From a virus: DNA of 64,000 nt. The DNA is taken from the IMG/VR virus record IMGVR_UViG_3300027708_000057, positions 1 through 64,000 of that record, one strand, 5' to 3'. Each line of letters opens with the position of its first letter. The first letter of the stretch is position 1. The notes below the pieces were generated by a model, which worked only from the letters and a program-made list of their open reading frames with translations, searched no databases and was not told the DNA's origin. The translations under genes and the position numbers were made by a program. This document shows, piece after piece, positions 1 through 19,461 of this stretch.

Positions 1-726
1 ATAAGAAACGAACTAGTTAATGGGATATATAAAGGAGATATAAGAATTAAATCTAAATATATATTACCAAATCTATCTGATATTGTAGTTAGTGGATATT
101 TTAATTGTCCTGATAATAAACTTACGTCTTTAAAAGGATCTCCTAAAGAAGTTGGTGGAGATTTTTATTGTCCTTATACTAACCTTACATCTTTAGAAGG
201 AGCTCCGCAAAAAGTTGGTAGAGATTTTAATTGTTCTAGTAATAACCTTACATCTTTAGAAGGAGCTCCTAAAGAAGTTGGTGGAAATTTTAATTGTTCT
301 AATAATAACCTTACATCTTTAGAAGGAGCTCCGCAAAAAGTTGGTAGAGATTTTTATTGTGATAATAATAACCTTACATCTTTAGAAGGAGCTCCGCAAA
401 AAGTTGGTGGATATTTTAATTGTTCTGATAATAAACTTACGTCTTTAAAAGGAGCTCCTAAAGAAGTCCGCGGAGATTTTTATTGTGATAATAATAACCT
501 TACATCTTTAGAAGGAGCTCCTAAAGAAGTCCGCGGAGATTTTTATTGTTTTAATAATAAACTTACATCTTTAGAAGGGGGTCCAAAAGAAGTTGGTGGA
601 TATTTTAATTGTTCTAATAATAAACTTACGTCTTTAAAAGGAGCTCCGCAAAAAGTTGGTGGAAATTTTAATTGTTTAAGAAATCTAGCTAGTCTCGACT
701 ATAAAGCATGGTTGTCAAAACAATAA
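1..726 (+). CDS. C-terminal part of LRR-array protein, copy 1 (5' end outside window)
   Basis: Frame 1 is open from base 1 to TAA at 724-726: IRNELVNGIYKGDIRIKSKYILPNLSDIVVS, then nine 21-aa xxFxCxxNxLTSLxGxPxxVx repeats, then a terminal unit ending LDYKAWLSKQ. Paralog of 17151..19004. Not in the ORF track because it lacks a start codon in the window. Confidence 0.9.
   Translation: MRNELVNGIYKGDIRIKSKYILPNLSDIVVSGYFNCPDNKLTSLKGSPKEVGGDFYCPYTNLTSLEGAPQKVGRDFNCSSNNLTSLEGAPKEVGGNFNCSNNNLTSLEGAPQKVGRDFYCDNNNLTSLEGAPQKVGGYFNCSDNKLTSLKGAPKEVRGDFYCDNNNLTSLEGAPKEVRGDFYCFNNKLTSLEGGPKEVGGYFNCSNNKLTSLKGAPQKVGGNFNCLRNLASLDYKAWLSKQ
94..690 (+). repeat. 63-bp tandem LRR-coding repeat array (about 9.5 units)
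   Basis: Recurrent unit resembling ggagatttttattgttctaataataaacttacatctttagaaggagctcctaaagaagttggt. Confidence 0.95.
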
Positions 727-801
727 TCTTATTATGAATAATAAATGTGTGCCAGGAAATGAACCGTTTGGTTTCGTCAAAGGTATGAAACAAAAAGAAA
801 A

Positions 802-1260
802 ATGAAAAAATCAAAGGAAGATATTCTGGCATCTCTTACTGCTAACACTCCTAAGGAAATGCTGCCTATTGAAGTAGTTCCTGAATATATTGGACCAAGC
901 CATGACGATATTATAAAGGATACTGAAGAAGACTATGCATTTGCAAGAGCACATATGAAGAAACTCATAGATGTTTCTGATGAAGCAATTGCTACATTAG
1001 GAGCATTATGTGCCGATTGTGAACAACCAAAATCCTACGAATTTCTCTCAACATTGATAAAAAACTCTGCAGATATTAATAACAATCTCATGATTCTCCA
1101 AAGAGATCGTAAGAAGCTGATTCAAGATAAACCCAAAGAAACTCAAGCCGGTATTAATGTAGGGGGATCAATTACTACAAATAACAATTCTATCTTTGTA
1201 GGATCTACTATTGAATTGCAGAAGTTTTTGAAAGATCAACAAAAAACTATAGATATATGA
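802..1260 (+). CDS. gp16: Terminase small subunit (T4 gp16-like)
   Basis: Lies directly upstream of the large terminase; DYAFAR and NNNSIFVGSTIELQKFLK motifs typical of T4-like small terminases. Confidence 0.8.
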   Translation: MKKSKEDILASLTANTPKEMLPIEVVPEYIGPSHDDIIKDTEEDYAFARAHMKKLIDVSDEAIATLGALCADCEQPKSYEFLSTLIKNSADINNNLMILQRDRKKLIQDKPKETQAGINVGGSITTNNNSIFVGSTIELQKFLKDQQKTIDI

Positions 1261-1670
1261 TTTTTGATAATCAAAAAACTAAGGAAAATGGATATTTGGG
1301 AAATCTCAATGTAAAGAAAAATGGAGTAAATATAGACTTTACATCAGAACAGATTACTGAATATGTTAAATGTATGCAGGATCCTGCATATTTTATCTGT
1401 AACTATGTTAAAATTATAAGTTTGGATGATGGATTAGTTAATTTTAAATTGCGAGGATATCAGGAAAATCTGATTAGCCATATTACTGATAACAAATTTA
1501 TTGCAGTACTAGCGCCGAGACAATCGTCCAAGTGCCAACATATAAATACAATCGTAACCATTCGTAATAAGATGACAGGTTTAATTGAAAAAATAACAGT
1601 TGGAGATTTATATGAAAGAACTAAAATAAATTTGTCACAAGATATTGACAGAGACCAAACCAAACACTAG
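1257..1670 (+). CDS. gp17: Terminase large subunit fragment 1 (aa 1-92) fused to a 45-aa split-intein N-fragment
   Basis: YLGNLNVK, DPAYFICNYVKI, YQE and Walker A start APRQSSK, followed by intein-like CQHINTIVTIRNKMTGLIEKITVGDLY. Confidence 0.92.
   Translation: MIFDNQKTKENGYLGNLNVKKNGVNIDFTSEQITEYVKCMQDPAYFICNYVKIISLDDGLVNFKLRGYQENLISHITDNKFIAVLAPRQSSKCQHINTIVTIRNKMTGLIEKITVGDLYERTKINLSQDIDRDQTKH
1533..1667 (+). mobile_element. Split intein A, N-fragment (45 aa)
   Basis: Starts with Cys directly after the Walker A Lys; block A pattern C....T.V.....G.....I.DL. Confidence 0.85.
1541..1548 (+). promoter_or_regulatory. T4-type late promoter inside the IntN coding sequence, upstream of the endonuclease gene
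   Basis: Exact TATAAATA about 100 bp before the ATG at 1645. Confidence 0.55.
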
Positions 1671-2685
1671 AAAATTACATCCATTATATACTGAATATAT
1701 TTCTCATATAATAGAAACTCATGATAAAGTTTTCGAAAACTTTAAAACTAAAAGTCCTGTAATAAAAATTAGCAGGCTTTTTAATGCGTTAACTAAAGAT
1801 CATGAAGAAGGGGAAGTTGAATGTCAAATATGTAAACTATATAAAAGAAACAGCATAATTCAACACGTTAATATTTCTCATGGATTGTCTGGAAAAGAAT
1901 ATAAGAAACTATATAATGCAGAATTAGTATCTGATGGAATCAAAGAATATTCATCAGAAAAAATCAAAGGTGATAAAAATCCCGGCTGGCAGCATGGTGG
2001 GAGATTGTCTCCATTTTCAGAAAAATTCGTGAAGTATCAAGGAAAACCTAAGGAAGAAATCTCAGAATCTCTTAGAGAATTATATGAAAAAGTCGGATCA
2101 TCGAATAAAGAAAATGGAAACAATAATAAGACTATAATATATTGGACTTCGAGGGGATATTCAGAAGGAGATGCTAAAAAAGAACTTTCAAAACGAGGAA
2201 TTACATTTTCATTGGAAACTTGTATTGAAAAACATGGAGAAGAGATTGGTAGAAAACTATGGTTGGAACGTCAAGAAAAATGGCAAAAAACAATGAAATC
2301 AAAACCAATAGAAGAAATTGAACGAATCAATCGGGATAAATCTACTGGGCGAATGTGTCAGTTATTTAATAGTAATCCAGAAGTGAAACTTATTCCCAGT
2401 TTGTTATATTATGTTCGATTTTTTAATGATGATAATAGTGTTGAGTTTTGGAAAGTTGGAATTACATCACATGATCAAGTATCTAAAAGATTTCCTTCTA
2501 TTAAACGATATGGTTTACAATATGAAATAATATCTACAAATATTAATATGAATTTTTATGATGCATTTAAAGCTGAACAAAATTTTCTCCATAAATATAA
2601 AGAACATAGAATTAATATTGATTATAATGGATTTACAACAACAGAATCATTTTCAATCAATGTCTTGAATAATCAAATATTATGA
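1645..2685 (+). CDS. Free-standing homing endonuclease (GIY-YIG-like C-terminus, Zn finger, NUMOD-like motif) between the halves of split intein A
   Basis: CQIC...H...H Zn finger, GDKNPGW, LLYYVRF...FWKVGIT...RF; overlaps both terminase fragments. Confidence 0.75.
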   Translation: MTETKPNTRKLHPLYTEYISHIIETHDKVFENFKTKSPVIKISRLFNALTKDHEEGEVECQICKLYKRNSIIQHVNISHGLSGKEYKKLYNAELVSDGIKEYSSEKIKGDKNPGWQHGGRLSPFSEKFVKYQGKPKEEISESLRELYEKVGSSNKENGNNNKTIIYWTSRGYSEGDAKKELSKRGITFSLETCIEKHGEEIGRKLWLERQEKWQKTMKSKPIEEIERINRDKSTGRMCQLFNSNPEVKLIPSLLYYVRFFNDDNSVEFWKVGITSHDQVSKRFPSIKRYGLQYEIISTNINMNFYDAFKAEQNFLHKYKEHRINIDYNGFTTTESFSINVLNNQIL

Positions 2686-3050
2686 GTCCTTTATTATCTG
2701 AAACAGTTAAAAGAAAGTTCATTGATACTCTTCCTATAGATGATTATGAAATTCTGACAGATACTGGATGGGAAGACCTTACTCATATTAATGTAACTAT
2801 TCCATATGATGAATATGAGATTACATTAAAGGATAATAAATCTATGATATGCGCGGATACTCACATTTTCTTTAATGAAAATACTGAAGAAATCTTCGCA
2901 AAGGATTGTGATAATATCAAAATTCAAACAGTGGACGGGCCAATTCAAGTTGAGTCTGTTATCAAAAATGGTAAACAATCCAATATGTTTGATCTATCTG
3001 TAAATTCCGACAATAACAGATATTATACAAATGATATTTTGAGCCATAAT
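2682..3050 (+). mobile_element. Split intein A, C-fragment (123 aa)
   Basis: Block B CADTH, block F MFDLSV, C-terminal HN followed by Ser. Confidence 0.9.
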
Positions 3051-4076
3051 AGCACTACTGCTATTGCCTGGTTGTTTTGGTATATCATGTTTAATGCTGA
3101 TAAACAGGTTGGAATTCTTGCAAATAAAGGGGCTATATCTCGTGAAATGCTTGCTAGATTTACCTTAATGTTAGAAAATCTTCCATTCTGGTTACAACCC
3201 GGATGTAAGGTGCTTAATAAGGGTTCTATCAAATTTTCACATAATTCCGAAATTATTGCGGCTGCCACATCATCATCTAGTATTCGTGGAAGAAGTCTTA
3301 ACTGTGTTACAGGTGATACTAAAATATGTATATCAGCCAGAGATGGTATTTATTATATGACTACCATAGAGAATTTATATACAAATTTTTCTTATGGTAT
3401 GAAAGTAAAAACAAAGGAGGGGTTTAAGCCCTTTGATGGTGTATTAGATCAAGGGGTTTCAGAAAAAATATTATCTATATTTCTTAATAATGGGGAAACA
3501 TTAAATTGTACATATGATCATAAACTTTTATTAAATGATGGAATTTCTTTTATACCAGCAAGATTCTTAGAAAATAATGACATCTTATATCCTGATATAC
3601 AAATAATCAATATATCTGAGCATAAACCAGAAAAAGTATATGATCTTATAAATGTAAAAGATACACATTCTTATTTTACAAATGGTATTATTAGTCACAA
3701 TTGTCTAATGCTCGATGAGTTTGCATTCGTAAATAATGCCGACGAATTTTACACAGGTGTTTATCCGGTTATTACATCTGGCACAGATGTAAAAGTAATT
3801 ATTACATCTACACCGAACGGAGTTGGTAATATGTTTTATAAAATTTGGGAAGGAGCCATTCAAGGAACCAATGATTTTAAACCATTTCGTATTAGGTGGC
3901 AAGAAATACCCGGTAGAGATGAGGTGTGGAAAAGACAAACTATTGCAAATACTTCTATTGTAAAATTTTCTCAGGAATTTGAATGCATTTCATTTTCTTC
4001 AGATATTACTATAAAAGATACTACTACTGGTATTATTTCTAATAAGAAAATAGGAGAACTTCATTCCATTTTGTGA
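2682..4076 (+). CDS. gp17: Terminase large subunit fragment 2: IntC(A) - extein - cis mini-intein - extein - IntN(B)
   Basis: ...ILSHN|STTAIAW, ILANKG, RGRSLN|C...ISHN|CLMLDEFAF (Walker B), ITSTPNG, FSQEFE|CISFSS. Confidence 0.93.
   Translation: MSPLLSETVKRKFIDTLPIDDYEILTDTGWEDLTHINVTIPYDEYEITLKDNKSMICADTHIFFNENTEEIFAKDCDNIKIQTVDGPIQVESVIKNGKQSNMFDLSVNSDNNRYYTNDILSHNSTTAIAWLFWYIMFNADKQVGILANKGAISREMLARFTLMLENLPFWLQPGCKVLNKGSIKFSHNSEIIAAATSSSSIRGRSLNCVTGDTKICISARDGIYYMTTIENLYTNFSYGMKVKTKEGFKPFDGVLDQGVSEKILSIFLNNGETLNCTYDHKLLLNDGISFIPARFLENNDILYPDIQIINISEHKPEKVYDLINVKDTHSYFTNGIISHNCLMLDEFAFVNNADEFYTGVYPVITSGTDVKVIITSTPNGVGNMFYKIWEGAIQGTNDFKPFRIRWQEIPGRDEVWKRQTIANTSIVKFSQEFECISFSSDITIKDTTTGIISNKKIGELHSIL
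3303..3701 (+). mobile_element. Contiguous mini-intein (133 aa) in terminase, just before Walker B
   Basis: CVTGDT...CTYDH...VYDLINV...ISHN followed by Cys. Confidence 0.93.
3984..4073 (+). mobile_element. Split intein B, N-fragment (30 aa)
   Basis: CISFSSDITIKDTTTGIISNKKIGELHSIL* after QEFE. Confidence 0.88.
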
Positions 4077-4399
4077 AACCTAACTTTAAATACGAAATTC
4101 TTACTACGAAAGGTTTCAAGAAGTTTGATGGGATTTCTAAACAATCTTCATCAAAAACATATACTATTATTGGAGAAACTTTAGAATCTATTGTTGCAAC
4201 TGAAAATCATAAATTTCAATGCTCCGATGATTCATGGGTGTCAGTTCTGGATTTGCTTACTACACATAGAAACTCTATTCTCAAAAATATCGGAGAAATT
4301 GTTGATATATCTCCAAATAATATTACAGAAGATGTATATGATTTGATTAATGTCGCTGATACTAAATCCTTCATTGCATCTGGTTTTATATCTCATAAT
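4073..4399 (+). mobile_element. Split intein B, C-fragment (109 aa)
   Basis: Blocks B, F and G present; ends HN followed by Cys. Confidence 0.9.
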
Positions 4400-5203
4400 T
4401 GTGAATTCATCGGATCTGCTCAAACTTTAATTTCTTCTAATATTCTTCTAGGTCTTACTTCCCGAGAACCTATTAAGACTCAATATGAAATTAAATATTA
4501 TATTGAACCGTTGGAAGGGCATGTTTATATAATGACAGTTGATGTTAGTAAAGGCCGAGGGCAAGATTATTCAACATTCTCCATTTTTGATATTACAGAA
4601 CAACCCTTTAAACAAGTTTGCACATTTCGAGATAATATGATTTCTCCGTTAATGTTTCCCGAATATATTATCCGAGGAGCTAAATTATATAATAATGCTA
4701 TTGTTATTATTGAAAATAATGATGTAGGACAAGTTGTTTGTAATTCTGTATATTATGATTATGAATATGATAATCTATTTGTACAATCTTCTCTTAAGGC
4801 TTCAGGTGTTGGAGTTACTATGACTAAGAGGGTCAAACGCGTAGGTTGTTCTAACTTGAAAGATTTGCTTGAACAAGGAAAGTTAGAAGTATATGATGCA
4901 AATACAATAATTGAATTGACTTCATTTGAACCTAAGGGTGAAAGTTATGCAGCATCAGGGTCTAATCATGATGATATGGTCATGAATTTAGTATTATTTG
5001 CATGGTTTGTTTCAACAGAAGCTTTTGGAAATATATCATCCATTGATTTAAAATCATTATTGTATGCCGATAAGATTAAGGAAATGGAAGAGAATGATTT
5101 GCCATTCGCCATAATGACTTCTGAATATAACGAATATTCCAGCCCATCGATGGAGTATTATGAGAAAGCTAAGGCCGAACTTGAAGAGTGGGGTCACTTA
5201 TAA
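4073..5203 (+). CDS. gp17: Terminase large subunit fragment 3: IntC(B) (109 aa) plus nuclease domain
   Basis: ATENH, VYDLINV, ISHN|CEFIGS; RNase H-like motifs TVDVSKGRGQDYS, IENND, HDDMVM; GTG start overlaps the TGA of fragment 2. Confidence 0.93.
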   Translation: MKPNFKYEILTTKGFKKFDGISKQSSSKTYTIIGETLESIVATENHKFQCSDDSWVSVLDLLTTHRNSILKNIGEIVDISPNNITEDVYDLINVADTKSFIASGFISHNCEFIGSAQTLISSNILLGLTSREPIKTQYEIKYYIEPLEGHVYIMTVDVSKGRGQDYSTFSIFDITEQPFKQVCTFRDNMISPLMFPEYIIRGAKLYNNAIVIIENNDVGQVVCNSVYYDYEYDNLFVQSSLKASGVGVTMTKRVKRVGCSNLKDLLEQGKLEVYDANTIIELTSFEPKGESYAASGSNHDDMVMNLVLFAWFVSTEAFGNISSIDLKSLLYADKIKEMEENDLPFAIMTSEYNEYSSPSMEYYEKAKAELEEWGHL

Positions 5204-5217
5204 AAATGCTCAAAAAA

Positions 5218-5225
5218 TATAAATA
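5218..5225 (+). promoter_or_regulatory. T4-type late promoter
   Basis: TATAAATA upstream of tail sheath gene. Confidence 0.75.
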
Positions 5226-5287
5226 GAATTGAGTGAATTCTTCCTTATCATGAGTTTCTTATTATTAACACCCTCGAAAACAAATAT

Positions 5288-7102: not shown

Positions 7103-7124
7103 TTTTATAAACATTAAAAACTAA

Positions 7125-7132
7125 TATAAATA
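7125..7132 (+). promoter_or_regulatory. T4-type late promoter
   Basis: TATAAATA upstream of tail tube gene. Confidence 0.75.
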
Positions 7133-7140
7133 ATAATAAT

Positions 7141-7683
7141 ATGAGTCAAGGAATATCACAATTTAAAGGGCAATTTAATGGTGGAGGTGCTCGACCTAAT
7201 CTATTCAAAGTAGCTATGCAATTTCCCGGAAGTGTTGGAGTAAATGCATCTCAACTTTCGGAATATATGATTAAGGCTGCTTCATTACCATCGAGTGTAG
7301 TTGGAGAAATATCTGTTGGATATCGCGGGCGTAAATTGAAAATTGCCGGAGATCGTGTGTTTGCCAATTGGACCGTCACTGTATATAATGACACTGATAT
7401 GTTATTACGAAATGCGTTCGAATCTTGGATGAGTCTTATCGGGCAAAATGCGGCAAATATATCAAATTCAAATCCTCCCTTGGATGGATATATGACTGAT
7501 CTTGCTGTATATCAATTGGATCGCCAAGAAAATGTTACTAAATCCTATAAGTTTATTGATGCATGGCCAGTAAATATTCAGGACATTCCTCTAGACTTTG
7601 ATACCAATGATGCTATTGAAGAATTTACAGTTGAGTTTGCATATCAGTATTGGGTTTCTCCAGCTGATGGGCAAACTATGTAA
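7141..7683 (+). CDS. gp19: Tail tube protein
   Basis: GGARPNLF, GRKLKIAGDR.F..WTVT..ND, IEEFTVEFAYQYW. Confidence 0.97.
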   Translation: MSQGISQFKGQFNGGGARPNLFKVAMQFPGSVGVNASQLSEYMIKAASLPSSVVGEISVGYRGRKLKIAGDRVFANWTVTVYNDTDMLLRNAFESWMSLIGQNAANISNSNPPLDGYMTDLAVYQLDRQENVTKSYKFIDAWPVNIQDIPLDFDTNDAIEEFTVEFAYQYWVSPADGQTM

Positions 7684-7697
7684 TATCGACTATTATT

Positions 7698-7733
7698 GTC
7701 CGACTATCTCTAAATTATGAGGGATAGTCGGAC
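7698..7733 (+). terminator. Stem-loop between tail tube and portal genes
   Basis: gtccgactatctct / agggatagtcggac inverted repeat. Confidence 0.6.
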
Positions 7734-7746: not shown

Positions 7747-10700
7747 ATGAAATTATTTGGATTTGAAATAAGTAAAAAGATTGATAAAAGGTCCTCTGAA
7801 AGTGGAGGTCTTGAGATTGATAATACTATTAAGTCATTTGCTATACCGTCGCAAAATGACGGTACTATGTTATTGCCCTCATCATCTGCTGCAGGGTATT
7901 ATGGTCAAATCCTTGATATTGATGGCACCTCCTTTGTTAATGAAAAGGATCTTATTCTTAAATATAGAGCGGCGGCAGGTCAGCCGGAATGTGATACTGC
8001 TATTGCTGATATTACCAATGCTGCAATTATCTCAGACTCAAAGGGAAGCCCAGTCAAGTTAGATCTTGATGTAGTTGATTTACCTCAAAAAGTTAAAGAA
8101 CGAATTTTTGAGGAATTTAATATTATTCTTCAACTACTTGATTTCAATTTTACGGGTTATGATATTTTTCGGAGATGGTATATTGATGGAAAAGTGTATT
8201 TCCATCTACAAATCGATTCATCAAAACCAAAGGACGGAATTAAAGGTATAGTACAAATTGATCCTTTAAAGATCAAGAAAATTAAAGAAATATCTACTAC
8301 TATTGATAGAGTATCTGGCATCAAATCAAATAAGATTACAGCAGAATACTTTTTATATTCCGATGATTTTTCCAGTAGTACAACCGGTGTTAAAATTGAT
8401 CCAAATGCTATTGTATATGTACCTTCAGGGATTCTAGATGAATCTGGGAAAATCTCGATTTCGTATTTACACAAATCCATTAAGTTGGTAAATCAATTGC
8501 AAAAGATGGAAGATTCATTGGTAATCTATCGTGTAGCAAGAGCACCAGAACGCAGAATCTTCTATATCGACGTAGGAAATCTTCCTAAAGGTAAAGCTGA
8601 AGAGTATGTTCAGGGTCTCATGGCGAAATACCGGAATAAATTAGTGTATGACGCTTGCTTGGATATGAATACTTTGATACCTCTTCTTGATGGGCGAACT
8701 TTATCATTAAGAGATATACAAACAGCATTCGAAAATGGTGAGAGATTATGGGCGTATTCATGTGATCCTAATACTGGTAAATTTGTCCCAGGTTTAATTA
8801 CAAGTGCAGGAGTTACTAAATTTAATCAAGATGTTATTAGATTGACTCTTGACAATGGTAAGACTATTACTTGTACTCACGATCATAAATTTCCTGTTTG
8901 GAATAAGGGTAAAGTTGAAGCTAAAGATTTAATTATTGGCGATTCAATGATTCCTTTTTATACACGAGAAGAAAAAATAGTATCTAAACATTCCGGTTAT
9001 CATCAACATTTCGATAATTCTGATAAAAAATGGATATTTACACATAGGGCAGTTTCTATCTGGAAAGATAAAAATTTATTAGATAACGAGTGGGTTTATG
9101 ATACATCTGTAGTAATGGAACAAAAAGGAACTATTCATCATAAGAATTATAATAGATATGATAATTCTCCCGAGAATCTAGTCAAAATGAATAGTAAAGA
9201 TCATTTTAAATATCATAAGCAACATAATGGTCTTGCTGGTAAAATTGGAGGTAAAGTTACAGCCGATAGAATTAGAGCAAAGGGAGATAAATTCTTTCCT
9301 AATTTAGATCCGATTAAAATGCGGCTAATTCATGCTGAGTGTGGAAAAATAGCTGGGCGGTTTGCAGTAGAGAATAAAATAGGAATTCATGGATTATCAC
9401 ATGAAGAAATATGTGATAATGCTAAATTAGGAAGTGATGCTTTATTAGCAAAATTTGCTGATCCTGCTTTTTATGCATCTATATGTGCAATACAAAAGGC
9501 CAGTTGGAATAATAGAGACGATCGTAGATTAGCAGCCGCCGAAAGAGGTAAAACCTTATCTATGGAGCATTTTCAAAATATGAGTGTTCTTGGTAATGGA
9601 TCTCGTTGGGGTTCTAATAAATCCGAAGAAAATAGAAAAGCTCTATCTGAATCACAACAGATAATGTATCCTAAGAATATATCATCAATAATCGAAGATG
9701 CAGTTCGAACAAATAAATCCGTTTCCGATATACTTATCCATATAAATGCTCATATTGATCATAATGAATGGACACATCTGAATGATAAAAAGATTATTAA
9801 ACTTCGTAAATCTATATCACCATTTACACATAAAGACCTTAGGCGTTTATGTAAAACTGCTAGCTTTAATACAATTAAAGAATATAAAGAGGCTCTACTT
9901 TATAAAAATCATAAGATTATTAATATAGAATATCTAGATGAAAAAATTGATGTTGGCACACTTGGTATTGATAAAGATGAAATTTATCATAACTATCACA
10001 CATTTGCTCTAGACGCTGGAATATATACATGCAATTCTACAGGCGACATACGAGATGACAGAAAATCAATGTCAATTTTGGAAGACTTTTTCCTTCCCAG
10101 AAGAGATGGGTGTATTTCTCTTGATACTAAGATTAAAATACTAGATGGCAGAGACACACCTCTAATTGATTTAATTCAAGATTATAATTCAGGTATTCAG
10201 AATTGGGTATATTCAGTATCTCCTGATGGTACTATAGTTCCTGGTAAAATCTCTTGGGCTGGTATAACAAGAAGAAATACTGAAGTTGTTAAAGTTTATC
10301 TCGATAATGGAGAAGTTGTTACAACAACTCCAGATCATAAATTCATTCTTCGTAATGGTGAAAAAGTTGAAGCTAAAGAATTAGTAGTTGGTAGTTCTCT
10401 TGCAACATATAATACTGAAGATACTAATAATCTTCATATAGTTGAAACTATTGAGTTTGTTCCTAATAAGATTGATGTTGGTACTCTTACTATTGATGAA
10501 CATCATGAACATCATGACTATCATAACTTCGCTTTAAGTTCTGGTATATTTGTAATGAATTCCAAAGGTACAGAAATCACCACACTTCCCGGCGGAGAGA
10601 ATCTTTCCGAAATTGCTGATATTAATTTTTTCCAAAAGAAGTTATATCGGTCTCTTAATGTACCATCTGCTCGACTTGAAGCTGATTCATTATTTGTATC

Positions 10701-11274: not shown

Positions 11275-11694
11275 ATGATTGAAAACTTTTTAAATAATCT
11301 TGCTTCTGATAATACAGAAAAGACGGATGCATCATTCAATAACCTTATTATGACCAAGGTTAATACTGTTCTTGATATTAGTCGAATCGAGTTGACTTCT
11401 GATATCTTTAATAAGCAAAAGAGTGTGTCTGAATCTGCAGATGATGCTTATAAATGTGCTCTTGCACAAGAACAATCTAATCCACGATTTGTAGAATCTC
11501 AAGATATTATTGCTCAAGGACTTACTCCTACTCAAGCTCAAGCGTTTGATAGTATGATTTCTCAATGGGTTATTACTGGTGGAAATCTTCAACAACTACT
11601 TCGAAATTTCTATCAAAAACTTTTACTTTCCGGTAATAATATATCAAATCCTCGTATGCAAAAGGCTTTGGCATTTGTTCTCGATAAACTATAA
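11275..11694 (+). CDS. Prohead core/internal protein with gp67-like N-terminal module
   Basis: gp67 position after portal; MIENFLNNLASDN...IMTKVNTVLDISRIEL. Confidence 0.6.
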   Translation: MIENFLNNLASDNTEKTDASFNNLIMTKVNTVLDISRIELTSDIFNKQKSVSESADDAYKCALAQEQSNPRFVESQDIIAQGLTPTQAQAFDSMISQWVITGGNLQQLLRNFYQKLLLSGNNISNPRMQKALAFVLDKL

Positions 11695-11700
11695 AATCTT

Positions 11701-12129
11701 ATGATTAAAAAATTCATTAAACTTATATCGGAAGATAATAAATTTGCAAAAGATGCAATGCTTACTAATATTATTATGACTAAAGTCAATACGGCCCTTG
11801 ATATTAAACGGATTGAAATGGCTGTTAGTGTATATAATGAATCGATGGAGGATGATATAGCTTTTGGTAAGCAAGAATTTCTAAAATTAAACCTTAAAGT
11901 GGGAGCTCATACTAATGTAGGCGATTTTATTAAGTCAGATGATGATGCTGCTTATTTTATGAATGGTCCAAATAGGAAAACTATACCATTTGGAGCAAAA
12001 GTTATTGGTGGTAAATCTACTTTTTCTAATATCCGGGTATTAACTGATATAGAATGGGAAGAAAAACAGCAAACTCATACAGATACAATGCAAGCTCATG
12101 TGAATAGAACTCCCAAACGTATTGACTAA
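11701..12129 (+). CDS. Prohead core/internal protein with gp67-like N-terminal module
   Basis: N-terminal about 47 aa paralogous to the upstream ORF (IMTKVNTALDIKRIEM). Confidence 0.6.
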   Translation: MIKKFIKLISEDNKFAKDAMLTNIIMTKVNTALDIKRIEMAVSVYNESMEDDIAFGKQEFLKLNLKVGAHTNVGDFIKSDDDAAYFMNGPNRKTIPFGAKVIGGKSTFSNIRVLTDIEWEEKQQTHTDTMQAHVNRTPKRID

Positions 12130-13112
12130 TGATAAAATCTTTCTTAAATTACATAGCAGATGATAATACTGAATTGAGCAATTCAACTCTTCATAAATTA
12201 ATTAGGAAGAAGGTGAATGAATCTATCTTAGATAAAAAAGTAGAATTATCTGTTGATATTTTAAATGAAAATCCGGTAACTGATAAAGTAAAAATATTAG
12301 GTAAAGCTGGACTATATCCAAAAGATGATGAACTTGATATATTACGCAGTATAAACATTATTTCTAACGGTGGAGACCTTTCAACCATTCAAAGAAAAAA
12401 GGCTTATAATCTTTTACTTAAACTTATTGAAATTGATACAAGTTCAGATCTTTTTATTAAGATAAAACAACATCTAGAAAATGATCAAGTTAAGTTAGGG
12501 GAGAATATAATGAGAAACGAATCTATTGAAAATCCATCCATAGTTGATACTATTGAAAATGATTCAACAAAAAAGAAATCTAGTATAGATGCTATCTTTA
12601 AAAAATTAAGAGGCAAAGATTCTGAATTAACAATGCTTGATTATAACAGATTACATGATTTATTTTATGATGGAGATGGATCTGATAAAAATTGGTCTGA
12701 TACAAAGAAAAAATTAAAGGCTATCCTTGCTGATTATTCTGAAGATGAAGAGATTCCAGATTTAATTCAATCTTTGACTGCTGCTATTAATAAAGGAGCT
12801 AAACTTGTAATATCTCCTGAAAAGGATAATGAAGATAAAATTACTCTTGTAAATAAGCTTGGCAATAAACTTGAGATAATTAAAGAACTTGAAGGTAAAC
12901 TTGAGCCATTAGATTATGAGGATGTGTATAACATATTCTTTAGAAATAAAGCTGATATGGAAGCCGGAAAAGAAATATTGATTAGGTTAATCGCGCAATA
13001 TAAAGAAAATGAAGAGGCTACAACAGTATTAAATAAATTAGCTCCAATGTTAGGAATTAAATCTAAAGAATCTCCGGAAATTGCGCCTGAGGAAGATGAA
13101 GATGAGGAATAA
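12129..13112 (+). CDS. Prohead core/internal protein with gp67-like N-terminal module
   Basis: MIKSFLNYIADDN...IRKKVNESILDKKVEL; acidic tail. Confidence 0.6.
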   Translation: MIKSFLNYIADDNTELSNSTLHKLIRKKVNESILDKKVELSVDILNENPVTDKVKILGKAGLYPKDDELDILRSINIISNGGDLSTIQRKKAYNLLLKLIEIDTSSDLFIKIKQHLENDQVKLGENIMRNESIENPSIVDTIENDSTKKKSSIDAIFKKLRGKDSELTMLDYNRLHDLFYDGDGSDKNWSDTKKKLKAILADYSEDEEIPDLIQSLTAAINKGAKLVISPEKDNEDKITLVNKLGNKLEIIKELEGKLEPLDYEDVYNIFFRNKADMEAGKEILIRLIAQYKENEEATTVLNKLAPMLGIKSKESPEIAPEEDEDEE

Positions 13113-13134
13113 ATGCAGAAAAACATGCTAAAAC

Positions 13135-13184
13135 TATAAATAGAATTGTAATAAGTGCTTGAAAATGAGCACAAAATATAAATA
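13135..13184 (+). promoter_or_regulatory. Two T4-type late promoters
   Basis: TATAAATA at 13135-13142 and 13177-13184. Confidence 0.7.
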
Positions 13185-13189
13185 AACAC

Positions 13190-13852
13190 ATGCTTTTAAT
13201 AACAGAAACTCTTGATTCTACTGTAAACCACATAACCGAAATGAATGGTTCTGGAGGTCAGAATCATTATATCACTGGCTGCTATATGCAGAGTGAGGTT
13301 GAGAATCGTAATAGACGCATTTATCCACGACAGATTCTTGAAAGAGCTGTTACAAAATATATTGATGAATATGTAAGTAAAGGCCGGGCAATTTCTGAGT
13401 TGGCTCATCCGTCTGGGCCTGCTATTAATCTTGATAAAGTATCGCATCGAATTACTGAACTCGCTTGGGTTGGTAATGATGTTATGGGTAAGGCTTTGAT
13501 TCTTAATACTCCCATGGGTCTTATCGTAAAAGGTCTGCTTGATGGTGGTTGTAAGCTTGGTGTATCTTCTCGCGGATTGGGAACGGTTTCTTCTCGTAAT
13601 GGTAAGACTTATGTTAATGATGATTATGCTCTTACAGCAATTGATATTGTTCAAGATCCATCGGCTCCTGCTGCATTTGTTAATGGTATAATGGAAATGA
13701 CAGAATACTTCTATGACACCAATACAGATATTGTGGCAGAAACTTCTGAAAAATATAAGAAGTTCATGAAAAATTTAAGTTCGCCTCAATTGGTTGAACA
13801 ACAGACTAAATTGTTTGCTCAATTTTTAAATGAGATAAACATAAAACTTTAA
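13190..13852 (+). CDS. gp21: Prohead protease
   Basis: NRNRRIYP, ELAHP, GVSSRGLG, DIVQDPSAP.A.V.GIME. Confidence 0.97.
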   Translation: MLLITETLDSTVNHITEMNGSGGQNHYITGCYMQSEVENRNRRIYPRQILERAVTKYIDEYVSKGRAISELAHPSGPAINLDKVSHRITELAWVGNDVMGKALILNTPMGLIVKGLLDGGCKLGVSSRGLGTVSSRNGKTYVNDDYALTAIDIVQDPSAPAAFVNGIMEMTEYFYDTNTDIVAETSEKYKKFMKNLSSPQLVEQQTKLFAQFLNEINIKL

Positions 13853-13980
13853 CTATGGAGACCAACGTTGTTGTGAAGTGAATATTGGTATGGAACTAGT
13901 GAAAATAAACATGAGACTGAAAGCTAAAGAAATTGTTCTTTAATTTCCTCTCCAACTCAAACAAACAAAAGTAATAAAAT

Positions 13981-15372
13981 ATGAAGCATAAAACAAATAT
14001 TGAAGACGAGGATACCATTGAAGATATCTCCGAAAATACATTACTTTCTCTTGATGAGCTTGCAGGAATTGCAAAGGCAATTGCGGAAGCCAAAGGTAAG
14101 AAGAAAGATGATAAAGATAGTGATGAGGAAATAGATGCAAAGCTTGGTCCTAAGGATGAAGCTAAAAAGTCTAAGTCTAAAAAGATTACATCTGACGAAG
14201 ATGAAGATAATTCAGATGATGAAGATGATGAAGATGAAGAAAATTCAGATGATGAAGATGAAGAAAATTCAGATGATGAAGATGATGAAGATGATGAAGA
14301 TGACGAGAATTTAAATGAAGATGAAGAAAATTCAGATGATGAAGAAGAAGCTGAAAAAACTAAACAGTTGAAGCAAACTGGTTTGTTTAGTGATGCTGAT
14401 ATTAAGAAAGTCATTATTACCCTTAAACTAATTAAGGATGAGGAAGAAGTTAGCCAAGAACAAAAAGACTTGGTTGTTTCAGTATTTCTCAAATTAGTTG
14501 GTTTAGTTACTGGTGATGAAGATGTATTCGAAAAGCTTAAAAAAACTATAAAGAGTGCCGAAGAAAATTCAGAAAACAAGAAGTCTAAGAAAGAAGAATC
14601 CATCAAAGTTGATCATTCTGATATCACTCGTCTAGTTGAATCTGAAGAAGGTCTTACAGAAGAATTCAAGGAACGTGCTACTATTATTTTTGAAGCAGCA
14701 GTTCTTTCTAAGGTTTCTGAAATTAGATCTAATCTTGAAGAAGAATATGAAACTCGTTTGAGTGAAGAAACTGAAACTATTAAAGATAATCTCATTGAAA
14801 AGATTGATAATTATCTCACTTATGCAGTTGAGGCTTGGGTAGAAGAAAACAAAGTCGCCATTGAATCAAGTTTGCGTACTGAAATTGCAGAGAACTTCAT
14901 TACTTCTTTAAAATCTGTATTCGTCGAACATTATATTGAAGTGCCTGAAAGTAAGGTTGATCTGTTTGCTAATCTAGAAGCAGAAGTAATCAAGCTTAAA
15001 AAAGATGTACGTGAAGCTGAACGAATTTCTGAATCCTTAGCCGCCGGAGTAATCACTCTGACCCGCGAAAAGATTATGCAGGAATCATTCTCTGATCTTG
15101 CTGATACACAGGTAGAAAAACTAAAGTCACTTGTCGAAGACGTTGAGTTTGTTAATGCATCTTCTTACAAAAAGAAGATTGATACAATTAAGAAATTCTA
15201 TATTACCGGATTAGATAATGACACAGAAACATTGCACGAAGACTACGATGATAATGCATATGTTAGTACTGAAACCATTGTAGAAAATGAAACCATGGAT
15301 GAAGATTACGTATCTCCAATCATGTCAAGATATTTAACCGCTATCTCACGTTCAGCTAAGGCTGCAAGCTAA
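13981..15372 (+). CDS. gp22: Prohead scaffolding protein with long acidic insert
   Basis: LTEEFKERA.IIFEAAV, YL.YAVE.W..EN, LK.VF.EHYIEVP; lies between gp21 and gp23. Confidence 0.93.
   Translation: MKHKTNIEDEDTIEDISENTLLSLDELAGIAKAIAEAKGKKKDDKDSDEEIDAKLGPKDEAKKSKSKKITSDEDEDNSDDEDDEDEENSDDEDEENSDDEDDEDDEDDENLNEDEENSDDEEEAEKTKQLKQTGLFSDADIKKVIITLKLIKDEEEVSQEQKDLVVSVFLKLVGLVTGDEDVFEKLKKTIKSAEENSENKKSKKEESIKVDHSDITRLVESEEGLTEEFKERATIIFEAAVLSKVSEIRSNLEEEYETRLSEETETIKDNLIEKIDNYLTYAVEAWVEENKVAIESSLRTEIAENFITSLKSVFVEHYIEVPESKVDLFANLEAEVIKLKKDVREAERISESLAAGVITLTREKIMQESFSDLADTQVEKLKSLVEDVEFVNASSYKKKIDTIKKFYITGLDNDTETLHEDYDDNAYVSTETIVENETMDEDYVSPIMSRYLTAISRSAKAAS
14194..14349 (+). repeat. Low-complexity D/E-coding tandem repeat
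   Basis: Repeated gatgaagatgaagaaaattcagat units (DEDEENSD). Confidence 0.8.
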
Positions 15373-15430
15373 AGCAACATGAAATAAGGTTCTAACCAAA
15401 ACAACAACAACAACAAAATAGAATAAAAAT

Positions 15431-16846
15431 ATGTTCAACTCAGAACAACTCGAAAAGAAGTGGGCTCCTGTACTAGAAACTCGTGATGCTCCAAAGTTCA
15501 AGGATAACTATCGTCGTGCTATCACTGCGGTTCTCCTAGAAAATCAAGAAAAGGCGATGCATGAAGAAAATTCGGCATCTAATTTCCTCAACGAAAGTAA
15601 TACTATCGGTGGTTCAGCTATCGGTGGTGGTACTGGTGCAGTTAAGACTTGGGACCCTGTCCTTATTAGTCTTGTGCGTCGCGCAATGCCAAACATTGTT
15701 GCGTATGATATTGCTGGCGTTCAGCCAATGACCATGCCTACTGGCTTGATCTTTGCTATGCGTTCTCAATACCAAGATAAAGACGGTGCTAATACAGTTG
15801 AAGCATTGTATAACACTCCTGATACTAGTTTCTCTGGTGATGACCAAGTTGGTGGCCGTCAAGGTCTTACTACTGCTATTGGTGAAACTCTATCTGGCAA
15901 CTCAGCTTCTAATACAACAACATGGGTCGATCCAAATGCTGCTAATGGATATCGTACAGATGGTGGTACTGCTGCAACATATAACCTCGGTCAAACTAAT
16001 GGTGCTAGCGGCGGCGCTGCTGGTGGTTTCGGTCAAATGGGTTTCACTGTCGATAAAACAACTGTTACTGCTAAGACTCGCGCCCTTAAGGCTGAGTACA
16101 CAATGGAATTGGCCCAAGACCTTAAGGCCGTTCACGGTCTTGATGCTGAAGCTGAACTTGCTAACATCCTATCGGTTGAAATCCTTGCAGAAATTAATCG
16201 CGAAGTACTTAGCACTGTTAATGCCAAAGCAAAGCTTGGTGGTATTATCTCCAATGGAACTCCTTCTGGCTACTTCGATATCAATGAAGATGCAGATGGT
16301 CGCTGGGCCGTTGAAAAATTCAAGTCATTAATCTATCAGATTGAGCTTGAAGCTAATGCAGTCGCCAAAGCAACACGTAGAGGGAAAGGTAACATTGTTA
16401 TCTGTTCATCTAATGTAGCCTCAGCACTTGCTGCCGCTGGTGTTATGGACTATGCTCCTGCTATGTCAACCAACTTGAATGTTGATGATACTGGTAATGT
16501 ATTCACAGGTATGATCAATGGTCGTCTCAAGGTGTTCATTGACCCATATGCTGATACTGATTATATCAATGTTGGTTATCGTGGTTCTAATGCATATGAT
16601 GCAGGTATCTTTTACTGCCCATATGTCCCTCTAACCATGGTGCGTGCCGTCAATCCTGAAACCTTTCAACCAAAGATCGGCTTTAAGACACGTTATGGTC
16701 TTGTTGCCAATCCTTTCGCTGGTGGTGCAGCTTCAACTGAAACTGGTGCTAATCGCGCCAACCCTTACTTCCGTATCTTCGGAGTAACTGGTCTTGGTCA
16801 AGGTTCTGATATTCCTACTGGCCGTAGTAACAAATACGGTTACTAA
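15431..16846 (+). CDS. gp23: Major capsid protein
   Basis: KKWAPVL, GVQPMT.PTGLIFAMR, RALKAEYTMELAQDLKAVHGLDAE.EL, YCPYVPL, FQPKIGFKTRYG. Confidence 0.99.
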   Translation: MFNSEQLEKKWAPVLETRDAPKFKDNYRRAITAVLLENQEKAMHEENSASNFLNESNTIGGSAIGGGTGAVKTWDPVLISLVRRAMPNIVAYDIAGVQPMTMPTGLIFAMRSQYQDKDGANTVEALYNTPDTSFSGDDQVGGRQGLTTAIGETLSGNSASNTTTWVDPNAANGYRTDGGTAATYNLGQTNGASGGAAGGFGQMGFTVDKTTVTAKTRALKAEYTMELAQDLKAVHGLDAEAELANILSVEILAEINREVLSTVNAKAKLGGIISNGTPSGYFDINEDADGRWAVEKFKSLIYQIELEANAVAKATRRGKGNIVICSSNVASALAAAGVMDYAPAMSTNLNVDDTGNVFTGMINGRLKVFIDPYADTDYINVGYRGSNAYDAGIFYCPYVPLTMVRAVNPETFQPKIGFKTRYGLVANPFAGGAASTETGANRANPYFRIFGVTGLGQGSDIPTGRSNKYGY

Positions 16847-16898
16847 GCTAATTAGTAACAGATTATATTTCTAAAGTATAATCTGATTACGAAAATTC

Positions 16899-16931
16899 AA
16901 AGGGTCTCCTGTAAAAAGGAGATCCTTTTTT
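16899..16931 (+). terminator. Rho-independent terminator after the major capsid gene
   Basis: aaagggtctcct-gtaaaa-aggagatcc followed by T tract. Confidence 0.85.
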
Positions 16932-17035
16932 GTTTTATAATATCGGAAATTCATATAGGTTAATTCTATGAGGAATTGGAAGATAATCAAGTTTAGATGT
17001 GCAATCAAGAAATTCGTTCCAATATACATGAGCTT

Positions 17036-17068
17036 ATAGTTACAATTTTTAATAAAAATTGTAACTAT
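17036..17068. repeat. 33-bp palindrome sharing its arm with the tnpB element ends
   Basis: atagttacaattttta-a-taaaaattgtaactat; aataaaaattgtaactat also occurs at 34475-34492 and, reversed, at 27723-27740. Confidence 0.85.
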
Positions 17069-17135
17069 TCATATATGATGTTCTTATGTTTTATTCATTA
17101 TAGAGCAAAGAATAATTTAATAAAGACTTATCATA

Positions 17136-17143
17136 TATAAATA
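17136..17143 (+). promoter_or_regulatory. T4-type late promoter of the LRR gene
   Basis: TATAAATA 8 bp before the ATG. Confidence 0.75.
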
Positions 17144-17150
17144 ATACCAT

Positions 17151-19004
17151 ATGATATCATTTCGCCAATTTATTTCCGAAGATGTAGCTTCTCAAGAACG
17201 TCAAGCTCTTAACATTCTTAATAGAAACCATATTAAAGATCCTGAAGACGTTTTTAATGATCTTAAAGCTATTACCGAACCATATCAGGCCGGTGATAAT
17301 ATAACAAGACCTGCAAGAAATCAAGCTCATCTTCCTAAACTTGCTGAATTTCTTTCGAAAGGAAAAATTAAGATTAACACTTTAAAGGCCTATTATGATA
17401 GGTATATTAAGAATCCAAAATTAAATAAGACGGCAATAGTTAACTTTAAAGACTTTAGAGAGTTTGAACAATTTGTTGATGAAAATGAGGTAGTTAAGAT
17501 GTCAGATCATGATTCTAGAAATAATAAAATTTCCGAAAAGAATGCTATCTATCATGATAGCGAAATAGATGTTTATCTTGGAGACACCAAGCAAGCCTGT
17601 ATGCTTTATGGGCAAGGATCTAAGTTTAATTTATGTATTTCCAGAAATGATTCTAGTAATCTATTTCATGATTATAGATGGAAACATGAACTTACTACTT
17701 ACTTTGTATACTTTAAAGAAGCCGGGGTTAATAATCCTAATTTTATTATCGTAGATGCTTCTAAAAAATCTCCTAAAACGTTTAGCTATAATATAATCAA
17801 ACCTAATTCTGATAAAAATATATCAAAGGAAAATCTTATTACGAAATTCCCGCAATTAAAAACCGCAATGGAAAAGGGTATCTTTAAACATAAGAAAATT
17901 GAAGGAGATGAAAAGAAATATTATATAAAATATCATGGTAAATCTATTACAGATTTTTCAACTCTAGATGATAGAATTAACTTTATTGAAATGGGGGAAG
18001 AAATTGAAGGTAATCAATGGTCTAAATTAGGAGATATGGTTCCTAAACTGTTACCTTATTATATTGAAATCGGACATGATATTCCAAAGGAAGTACTTGA
18101 TAAGAATACATCTTTTAAAAAACGATATGAACAAAAGTTACAACAAAGAGTTCAAATGAATCTTGATGATAATACTGATCTTGATGATTATACAAAAGAT
18201 GAACTAGAATATGCTTTAAGAAATAATGATAGGGTAAAAGATAAGATAAAGCAGATAAGCAAACTAGAAGAACTTAAAATAAGAAACGAACTAGTTAATG
18301 GGATATATAAAGGAGATATAAGAATTAAATCTAAATATATATTACCAAATCTATCTGATATTGTAGTTAGTGGAGATTTTTATTGTCCTTATAATAAACT
18401 TACATCTTTAGAAGGAGCTCCTAAAGAAGTTGGTGGAGATTTTAATTGTTCTAGTAATAAACTTACATCTTTAGAAGGAGCTCCTAAAGAAGTTGGTGGA
18501 GATTTTTATTGTGATAATAATAACCTTACATCTTTAGAAGGAGCTCCTAAAGAAGTTGGTGGAGATTTTTATTGTTCTAGTAATAAACTTACATCTTTAG
18601 AAGGGGGTCCAAAAGAAGTTGGTGGATATTTTAATTGTGATAATAATAACCTTACATCTTTAGAAGGGGGTCCAAAAGAAGTTGGTGGATATTTTAATTG
18701 TTCTGATAATAAACTTACTTCTTTAGAAGGATCTCCGCAAAAAGTTGGTGGATATTTTAATTGTTCTGATAATAAACTTACTTCTTTAGAAGGATCTCCG
18801 CAAAAAGTTGGTGGATATTTTAATTGTTCTGATAATAAACTTACATCTTTAGAAGGAGCTCCTAAAGAAGTTGGTGGAGATTTTAATTGTTCTGATAATA
18901 AACTTACATCTTTAGAAGGAGCTCCTAAAGAAGTTGGTAGAGATTTTTATTGTTCTAATAATCTAGTCAAATTAGACTATAAAGCATGGTTGACAAAACA
19001 ATAA
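17151..19004 (+). CDS. Putative internal virion protein with capsid-targeting-like N-terminus and C-terminal 21-aa LRR array (copy 2)
   Basis: Starts MISFRQFISE (compare T4 internal protein MKTYQEFIAE); nine GxFxCxxNxLTSLEGxPxxVG repeats plus terminal unit. Confidence 0.8.
   Translation: MISFRQFISEDVASQERQALNILNRNHIKDPEDVFNDLKAITEPYQAGDNITRPARNQAHLPKLAEFLSKGKIKINTLKAYYDRYIKNPKLNKTAIVNFKDFREFEQFVDENEVVKMSDHDSRNNKISEKNAIYHDSEIDVYLGDTKQACMLYGQGSKFNLCISRNDSSNLFHDYRWKHELTTYFVYFKEAGVNNPNFIIVDASKKSPKTFSYNIIKPNSDKNISKENLITKFPQLKTAMEKGIFKHKKIEGDEKKYYIKYHGKSITDFSTLDDRINFIEMGEEIEGNQWSKLGDMVPKLLPYYIEIGHDIPKEVLDKNTSFKKRYEQKLQQRVQMNLDDNTDLDDYTKDELEYALRNNDRVKDKIKQISKLEELKIRNELVNGIYKGDIRIKSKYILPNLSDIVVSGDFYCPYNKLTSLEGAPKEVGGDFNCSSNKLTSLEGAPKEVGGDFYCDNNNLTSLEGAPKEVGGDFYCSSNKLTSLEGGPKEVGGYFNCDNNNLTSLEGGPKEVGGYFNCSDNKLTSLEGSPQKVGGYFNCSDNKLTSLEGSPQKVGGYFNCSDNKLTSLEGAPKEVGGDFNCSDNKLTSLEGAPKEVGRDFYCSNNLVKLDYKAWLTKQ
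18372..18968 (+). repeat. 63-bp tandem LRR-coding repeat array (about 9.5 units)
   Basis: Same unit family as 94..690. Confidence 0.95.
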
Positions 19005-19011
19005 TCTTATT

Positions 19012-19461
19012 ATGAATAATAATCTTCTTCCACTTACAGGGTTCAAACTATCCGTTGGCACAGACCAATTTAAACATCTCCGACACTTTGCTGTATCGGC
19101 TAATATGCCCGGTTGTAATATTGGAGAAGTATCTACGACATACCGAAATTTATCCGGGTATGTTCCATCTGATCATATATCGTATGATTCTTTGAATATT
19201 CGGTTTGCCGTCGATGAAAGTATGGTTGTATATGATGAAGTATTCCAATGGTTATCATCATGTACATCCTCTAATGTAATACCTGTACATGATATTGTCT
19301 TAAACTTTTTAACAAGTAAATTTAATATATCCCGAAGTGTAAGCTTTAGTAATGTATTTCCATCAAGTATTTCGGGTATTAATTTTGATGTACAAAATAC
19401 CGAAGTTGAGTATGCTTATATCGATGTTATATTTAGATATGACAATTTTGTGTTTGTATAA
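19012..19461 (+). CDS. gp3: Tail tube terminator / tail completion protein
   Basis: L.LTGFKL, YD.LNIRF.VDE.M..Y.E...W, FPSSISGINFD; usual position after the capsid genes. Confidence 0.8.
   Translation: MNNNLLPLTGFKLSVGTDQFKHLRHFAVSANMPGCNIGEVSTTYRNLSGYVPSDHISYDSLNIRFAVDESMVVYDEVFQWLSSCTSSNVIPVHDIVLNFLTSKFNISRSVSFSNVFPSSISGINFDVQNTEVEYAYIDVIFRYDNFVFV

Follow-up and report, generated by a model that had tools for sequence, protein, structure and literature searches.

How does a phage come to carry, among its core genes, several leucine-rich repeat (LRR) genes that are identical in their unique part and scrambled in their repeats, and what might the encoded proteins do? The question is raised by the first 64 kb of a linear IMG/VR virus record (IMGVR_UViG_3300027708_000057; 74,353 bp, estimated to be ~41% complete), a stretch of 64,000 nucleotides referred to here as the window; coordinates are those of the window, and features lie on the plus strand unless stated otherwise. 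The source is a T4-like freshwater myophage with a genome of roughly 185 kb. It holds three real LRR paralogs, which have very probably been shuffled by ordinary recombination. A second proposal, that the LRR proteins are head cargo loaded via a capsid-targeting-like leader and injected into the host, is read from sequence and is held more tentatively, at a little short of an even chance. The account that blends these two parts is our best explanation of the locus and, taken whole, strikes us as moderately probable.

The first-pass annotation of the window had recognised two LRR genes (1-726 and 18279-19004). Both exist, but following its suggestion to search the rest of the genome raised the total in the record to three. 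Copy 1 (1..726) is the 3′ part only of a paralog cut by the contig end and consists of a 93-nt constant cap region, nine full 63-bp units, a terminal unit and a stop codon. Copy 2 (17151..19004) is a complete gene encoding 617 amino acids (protein P0002), whose array (18372..19004) again comprises nine full 63-bp units, a terminal unit with the C-terminal cap and a stop codon, so that the equal repeat count noted at first pass holds for copies 1 and 2. Copy 3 lies outside the window, at 73742-74353 of the full record (G000) on the minus strand; it is inverted, has nine units (eight plus the terminal one) and is cut by the far contig end. Tandem Repeats Finder placed 63-bp arrays at 87-676 and 18365-18962. 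The 93 nt preceding the arrays are 100% identical across all three copies, and the identical 5′ flanks that had been described proved to extend over 1,240 nt, beginning 16 nt ahead of the ATG and ending where the array starts: an exact three-copy repeat (17135..18374) containing the late promoter, start codon, leader, N-terminal domain (N-domain) and LRR N-cap. On the 3′ side the near-identical flank is short. Identity between copies 1 and 2 runs for 18-19 nt after the stop codon (727..745 in copy 1) and that between copies 2 and 3 for 6-8 nt. Each copy is a complete cassette, reaching from the TATAAATA late promoter to a few bases beyond the stop codon, and the three cassettes sit between gp15 and gp16, between gp23 and a gp3-like gene, and, inverted, upstream of uvsY-uvsW.

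The copies are real paralogs, and an assembly artefact is all but excluded. Logan contigs from four sequencing runs (X1-X4) were placed on 16900-19300; these derive from short reads at k = 31 and resolve neither unit order nor rare variants. In all four runs 17135-18374 was a single variant-free unitig, with a depth relative to its flanks of 2.9x (X1), 2.5-2.8x (X2) and 2.4-2.6x (X3), and of ~5x, at low cover, in X4. It was joined to three distinct upstream and three distinct downstream sequences, those of copies 1 and 3 among the latter, although not every junction was listed in every run. It is this roughly threefold depth, together with the three contexts on either side, that shows the copies not to be an artefact of assembly. 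When the three arrays were compared, the longest exact match between any of them was shorter than 64 nt, and each array is therefore uniquely assembled at k >= 64. The exact copy-2 protein recurs on three contigs, and its 90% cluster includes two further combinations: P0123 joins the identical 407-residue N-terminus to the copy-1 array, and P0125 joins the same N-terminus, with one change (E43K), to the copy-3 array.

Both ends of the record break within the 1,240-nt repeat, where related contigs break too. Two IMG/VR contigs and a metagenome contig (L011, L012 and L045) end 111 nt inside the gene and share no more than 123-127 nt with the window, at 100% identity from 17135 onwards; their upstream genes are gp13-, gp14- and gp15-like, which is the expected left neighbourhood of copy 1, the copy lying ahead of the small terminase gene. 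The end of a metagenome contig of 110 kb (L046) likewise falls inside the repeat, with a third upstream context. These ends are graph breaks at an exact three-copy repeat. Gene order in the contig is the assembler's choice, and T4 synteny backs only the order gp15-copy 1-gp16. Copy 3 shares 1.24 kb of exact identity with the other two copies but runs in the opposite orientation, an arrangement in which recombination between the arms would invert segments of 55-110 kb and swap arrays between contexts. The arms concerned lie at 17135-18374, at approximately 74262-75500 in G000 coordinates (past the contig end) and at the start of the window, and short reads cannot tell which isomer or isomers exist.

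The repeat unit has 21 residues and the form G-x-F-x-C-x-x-N-x-L-T-S-L-E-G-A-P-x-x-V-G, with the core V-x-x-x-F-x-C-x-x-N-x-L. Pfam LRR_4 scored 35.2 bits for copy 1 (cut-off 27) and only 11.5 bits for copy 2. An AlphaFold2 (AF2) model of the copy-2 LRR domain had a mean predicted local distance difference test score (pLDDT) of 95.7 and one strand pair per 21 residues, and its top matches in the PDB were all LRR proteins: YopM (4ow2, E = 4e-5), SspH1 (4nkg), SspH2 (3g06; TMq 0.71, 30% identity), IpaH and SlrP. The arrays are thus predicted to be short LRRs of the bacterial type, forming a curved solenoid with a face of parallel strands.

Variation falls in the slots that the first-pass annotation had listed, namely x-x-F-x-C-x-x-N-x followed by E/K, A/S/G and PKE/PQK. 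The model forms its strand from the N/Y-C pair in each unit; canonical LRRs have the alternating x positions around this pair turned towards the concave surface. The earlier proposal that the variable residues line a concave ligand face stands, on the basis of DSSP strand positions and this canonical geometry, for the main slots, which are the xxLxLxx positions of the predicted solenoid; it fails for about four variable codons (E/K, A/S/G, K/Q and E/K), which lie in the convex loop. The comparison of nonsynonymous (pN) and synonymous (pS) differences that had been proposed set two parts of the unit apart. For codons 1-9 (x-x-F-x-C-x-x-N-x) pairwise pS was 0 and pN was 0.176, so that the slots are purely nonsynonymous, whereas for codons 10-21 pS was 0.151 and pN was 0.069 (pN/pS 0.46). 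Selection maintains amino-acid diversity at these strand positions.

Alignment of the 63-bp units confirmed that they are mosaics. The 26 internal units of the three arrays represent 24 distinct sequences made from only 20 variable nucleotide sites; these form about seven blocks, each represented by two to eleven alleles. The four-gamete test was failed by 101 of the 190 pairs of variable sites, giving at least six exchange points (Rm) inside a unit of 63 nt. Alleles defined by at least three linked nucleotides re-assort as wholes: DNNN and SDNK (codons 6-9) occur with cct-aaa-gaa and ccg-caa-aaa in all four combinations. Because each within-unit combination fits inside a single assembler k-mer, these are not assembly chimeras. 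The linked markers listed at first pass were recovered (ccg-caa-aaa in 10 units, ggg-ggt-cca in three, and acg...aaa in three units of copy 1), together with gtc-cgc in two units. Recurrent point mutation was considered as the sole source of this pattern and rejected; it fits the re-assortment of single sites (D/Y/N and N/Y are one step apart) but not that of alleles with three to five linked differences. The four-gamete failures and the re-assorting multi-nucleotide alleles bear out segment exchange by recombination or gene conversion, as had been suspected.

The arrays also behave as draws from a single shared pool of segments, again as first proposed. Units differ on average by 7.25 nt within an array and by 7.36 nt between arrays (permutation p = 0.30), and by 7.32 nt at the same index and 7.37 nt at different indices, so there is no positional homology. 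Neighbouring units are slightly more alike (6.6 nt) than non-neighbours (7.4 nt), and two neighbouring pairs (c2.06/07 and c3.03/04) are identical, which argues for tandem duplication. Some alleles are private to one array: acg..aaa and gtc-cgc to copy 1, act to copy 2 and gat-gat to copy 3. Within-array expansion contributes alongside exchange between arrays.

The unique part of the gene gives a hint of the opposite tendency, towards uniformity. At site 17277, runs X1-X3 carry G in all copies, whereas X4 carries A, the E43K change, in a single multi-copy unitig. X4 nevertheless holds the same copy-2 array pieces, and P0125 couples K43 to the copy-3 array. Since one strain carries the change in most or all of its copies and another lacks it altogether, while both share the arrays, the pattern hints at concerted evolution, or gene conversion, among the paralogs; the depth of X4 is low (~10).

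The sequences show homologous recombination to be the mechanism behind the arrays: ectopic gene conversion between paralogs and, within arrays, unequal or out-of-register exchange and tandem duplication. This process keeps the unique part homogeneous and scrambles the repeats, and the general recombination system of the phage (UvsX, UvsY and UvsW), coupled with selection on the binding face, suffices to explain it. UvsX, whose presence had been claimed at first pass, was found as a RecA-family recombinase gene on the minus strand (25240..25947; PF00154, 32.1 bits, above the cut-off), and UvsY and UvsW were also found in the phage.

What the cassettes encode is a protein of ~69 kDa composed of a 10-residue leader, a phage-specific domain of 370 amino acids and nine to ten LRR units of 21 amino acids. 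The three-copy repeat begins ATATAAATAATACCAT-ATG, with a T4-type late promoter motif, TATAAATA (17136..17143), 7 nt ahead of the start codon. The same motif stands 5-12 nt before the starts of gp19 (7141), gp21 (13190) and open reading frame (ORF) 11275, among others, and for this reason the cassettes appear to bear the normal late signal of the phage. The leader, MISFRQFISE (17151..17180), resembles a capsid-targeting sequence and ends in I-x-E; it is followed by D, is modelled by AF2 with low confidence and precedes a first helix that starts at residue 12.

The N-domain (residues 11-376; 17181..18278; AF2 pLDDT 91) seems to be restricted to phages. Among 1.84 billion cluster representatives, 373 were related to it at E <= 0.001, with C162, Y175, R176 and F185 invariant, and its nearest Atlas clusters are 83-100% viral. 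The domain matched no Pfam family, gave no match at E <= 0.001 when searched with Foldseek against the PDB and none in a profile search against PDB sequences, and the best hit of a wide VIA-align search (Z 6.2, to designed helical repeats over residues 9-125 only) is unconvincing. Its fold matches in BFVD are uncharacterised phage proteins, one of which, a distant relative in the jumbo phage PA5oct, is named 'Structural protein'. A link to PcfJ (PF14284) consists of weak Foldseek matches to phage 'PcfJ like' models at E = 3e-3 and above and one Atlas neighbour at 0.88, and comparing the N-domain profile directly with PcfJ-LRR proteins gave a negative result (hhalign probability 0.25%). The N-domains of relatives are joined downstream to LRRs, ankyrin repeats, ParB_N or DUF4116. 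On one related viral contig (L008, 2839-5289) an N-domain-LRR gene reads in frame, with no stop codon, into a second N-domain, and is either a tandem duplicate read as a single ORF of more than 817 amino acids or a fusion.

The leader suggests where the proteins may go. In T4, the capsid-targeting sequence (CTS) is MKTYQEFIAE, where targeting depends on residues 4 and 7 and processing on residues 8 and 10 (PMC8442874); the prohead protease gp21 cleaves after the glutamate of (L/I)-x-E (PMC5694885), and the CTS is regarded as a route by which the heads of T4-like phages can take up diverse proteins (PMC9026906, PMC3012670). The LRR leader carries F4, F7, I8 and E10. In 50 relatives that share the N-domain, the glutamate column is at least 90% conserved despite variable leader length, and phi-x-E-[GDS] occurs within residues 1-40 of 64% of 148 representatives, compared with 11-17% in later windows or shuffled leaders. 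LRR-only paralogs of other large phages start alike (MKYLIKYRLFE followed by S, MKKLLESLLE followed by Q, and a leader ending EYINE followed by K), and some unrelated neighbouring genes in other phages have the same type of leader. According to the proposed mechanism, the leader would act like the T4 CTS so that the proteins are built into the prohead core, a gp21-type protease would clip it after I-x-E, and the proteins would leave the head together with the DNA. Once in the host cell, they would bind a host protein by their LRR face, giving three specificities per virion. Of the functions proposed, capsid loading and delivery with DNA is the one that the evidence supports best.

A gp21-type prohead protease is encoded here (13190..13852; phrog_207, E = 7.7e-68). 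At the position of gp67/gp68, genes of the prohead core, lies a small ORF (11701..12129) that starts MIKKFIKLISED, has a phi-I-S-E-D ending like that of the LRR leader and matched no family; judged by its position it may be a core protein. The three ORFs between portal and gp21 (11275-13112) have paralogous N-termini (MIENFLNNLASDN, MIKKFIKLISEDN and MIKSFLNYIADDN) and matched no family; they are candidate prohead-core proteins with leaders resembling the LRR leader.

Several points weigh against this account and its two parts. The phi-x-E motif is short, and occurs by chance in 11-17% of control windows. The mature LRR protein is not basic (isoelectric point 6.1, acidic to neutral), unlike T4 internal proteins (IPs) I-III. 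The late promoter and the position in the structural module would equally well fit an external virion protein, and packaging, cleavage and injection are each deduced from sequence alone. For the arrays, short reads cannot phase an array with its upstream context across the 1.24-kb repeat. The identical units c2.06/07 give 103 nt of identity, so that unit copy number is possibly underestimated if the assembler k was below 103. Finally, the runs that contain the region, all of them freshwater metagenomes from 2017, represent one year and one habitat and may belong to one campaign, which makes them weak evidence on the long-term stability of the arrays.

The alternative that survives best, though we consider it unlikely, places the LRR proteins on the outside of the virion, for example as head or neck decorations, fibres or adhesins. 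There they would turn their LRR face to the host surface, with phi-x-E incidental and the three paralogs acting as host-range determinants. Late promoters and an insertion between structural genes (gp15 and gp16; gp23 and the gp3-like gene) would be expected of such proteins, LRR domains often bind surface ligands, and the distant fold relative in PA5oct is labelled a structural protein. However, an incidental motif accords poorly with a leader glutamate that is conserved at the exact boundary before the first helix, or with the recurrence of this leader type on unrelated neighbouring genes in relatives and on the ORF in the prohead-core position here. Moreover, the proteins do not resemble any known family of fibre, Hoc, Soc or baseplate proteins.

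A more far-reaching version of the shuffled-paralog model would make the three cassettes a combinatorial repertoire at the level of the population, with the 1.24-kb arms serving as handles for UvsX, continual exchange of arrays and inversion of the segments between them. We regard this as improbable. If it were true, the LRR binders injected would differ from one sibling phage to the next and be directed at variable targets in host defence or takeover, and the phage would possess an analogue of cassette-based antigen-receptor diversification.

Less probable still is a programmed diversification system, either one like the variable lymphocyte receptors (VLRs) of lampreys, in which donor cassettes are copied to an expressed locus, or one like a diversity-generating retroelement (DGR), with a template and a reverse transcriptase. 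The attraction of this idea is plain, as the arrays draw on one pool of variants with no positional homology, the flanks are perfectly constant, and variation is clustered at AAT-type codons of the strand face, where it is entirely nonsynonymous. The dedicated reservoir-and-reshuffle system proposed at first pass nevertheless found no support in the analysis. All three copies have their own promoter, start codon and full ORF, and none is a partial gene served by donor cassettes. The 74-kb record gave no match to a reverse transcriptase (RVT_1); it is a fragment covering ~41% of the genome, so that absence is not proven. The same array pieces recur in X1-X4 with only low-depth alternatives, one of which, a variant piece in X3 (18832-18891, depth 5.4), is not interpretable, and the copy-2 protein recurs exactly on three contigs. 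A DGR was considered because variation sits at AAT-like codons; it was rejected on the absence of a detected reverse transcriptase and on two features of the variation itself, which includes sites that never hold A (nucleotides 46, 47, 60, 61 and 63) and perfectly linked blocks (ccg-caa-aaa, ggg-ggt-cca and gtc-cgc) unlike the products of DGR mutagenesis. Searches for further array variants were empty and have no bearing on variation: exact-pattern scans found none either for the junction between flank and first unit in metagenome contigs or for the conserved 3′ tail in viral contigs. A protein search with the truncated copy 1 (132-422 amino-acid range) returned nothing above 71% identity, its ranking favouring long arrays.

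Scarcely credible, lastly, is the artefact that the first-pass annotation had itself raised for the second copy, a single LRR gene mis-assembled from a short-read metagenome into several chimeric copies: the breakage of both record ends and of related contigs in the repeat would fit it, but a repeat at 2.4-2.9x flank depth in X1-X3, three junctions on either side, arrays with no exact match of 64 nt or more between them and the recovery of P0002, P0123 and P0125 from separate assemblies all oppose it.

The reading of shuffled paralogs that encode head cargo combines two known kinds of system, CTS-tagged head cargo and concerted evolution of repeat paralogs. The first is typified by IPI, IPII, IPIII and Alt of T4, with which the LRR proteins share a short leader having an aromatic residue at position 4, F7, I8 and E10 (MISFRQFISE compared with MKTYQEFIAE) and ending in an (L/I)-x-E gp21 site, a gp21 homolog being present here. 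Like the hyperplastic IP loci of T-even phages, the LRR genes are polymorphic, multi-copy and non-core, and are predicted from their promoter to be expressed late. T4 Alt is similar in size to the LRR protein. In contrast to the T4 proteins, those described here show no sequence homology to IPs, are not basic and would bring a 43-kDa domain and an LRR array as cargo; their genes are dispersed among core structural genes instead of being gathered at one IP locus.

The second kind is typified by plant NLR LRRs and bacterial surface-repeat genes, in which, likewise, the unique parts are homogenised and the repeats scrambled, units occur as tandem duplicates, the four-gamete test is failed and nonsynonymous change is in excess at xxLxLxx. 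The phage differs from those paralog families in that its genome is lytic, its cassettes start exactly at a late promoter and its inverted copies could invert large segments. The resemblance to lamprey and hagfish VLRs is confined to LRR faces combined from a limited set of cassette variants between constant flanks. A VLR locus has a single incomplete germline gene with non-coding donor cassettes by the hundred and AID-like deaminases, and its somatic assembly takes place cell by cell, whereas the phage has three complete genes and no donor-only cassettes, and there is no evidence that individuals differ.

Among proteins of known action, the closest in fold are the 'LPX' LRRs of YopM and IpaH/SspH/SlrP, which have repeats of the same bacterial type with 20-22 residues and the same solenoid. 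In these type III effectors the concave face recruits a host target, and they are delivered proteins, as the phage proteins putatively are. The phage proteins differ from them in a 21-residue unit with a Cys ladder (F-x-C), in having no NEL E3 ligase domain and in a partner fold found only in phages, and their delivery would be by ejection from the capsid. The likeness is one of fold and logic and need not reflect common descent.

The 21-residue LRR type is very common in phage-derived metagenome proteins. Among 8,000 candidates scored in each case, a search with P0002 gave 2,912 proteins at E <= 0.001 and one with the truncated copy 1 gave 1,880 at E <= 1e-40. The repeats are fused to many N-terminal domains, including PcfJ and dUTPase, and some phages carry tandem runs of four to nine or more LRR paralogs. 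Two contigs of other large phages (L004, 1-6200; L005, 300-5700) hold five to nine or more tandem LRR-only paralogs with short phi-phi-E leaders, and on L005 an unrelated gene of 638 amino acids carries the same leader. Literature searches for phage LRR families in T4-like or myovirus genomes found no description of them.

The remainder of the window (GC ~32%) contains a T4-like gene set of small and large terminase, sheath, tube, portal, gp21 protease, gp22 scaffold and gp23 major capsid protein, with the gp21, gp22 and gp23 homologs occupying 13190-16846. The major capsid protein shares 55% identity with its counterpart in Pelagibacter phage HTVC008M and 54% with the one in Methylophilales phage Melnitz. 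The large terminase subunit is split over three ORFs (1257-1670, 2682-4076 and 4073-5203) with an intervening unassigned ORF of 346 amino acids (1645-2685), which suggests inteins or homing elements. The portal ORF (7747-11235) encodes 1,162 amino acids, about twice the usual length, and probably contains an intein, its internal stretches matching HNH endonuclease and helicase-intein-like PHROGs. The gp22 scaffold gene holds an acidic GAT/GAA tandem repeat at 14193-14355.

The three-copy repeat explains why assemblies of this phage lineage recurrently break into identical pieces, and it warns that short reads do not settle how genes are ordered across the three repeats, where a segment of 55-110 kb may be inverted. 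The cassettes themselves offer a clean natural case of concerted evolution in a lytic phage, in which the unique arms are homogenised and the repeats scrambled. If the leader does direct proteins to the capsid, the T4-like phages that infect abundant bacteria of fresh and marine waters would deliver large LRR effectors together with their DNA. Such proteins would be the phage equivalent of the LRR effectors that bacterial pathogens secrete, with binding faces that evolve by repeat shuffling under diversifying selection, and would make up a testable class of phage counter-defence or host-takeover proteins.

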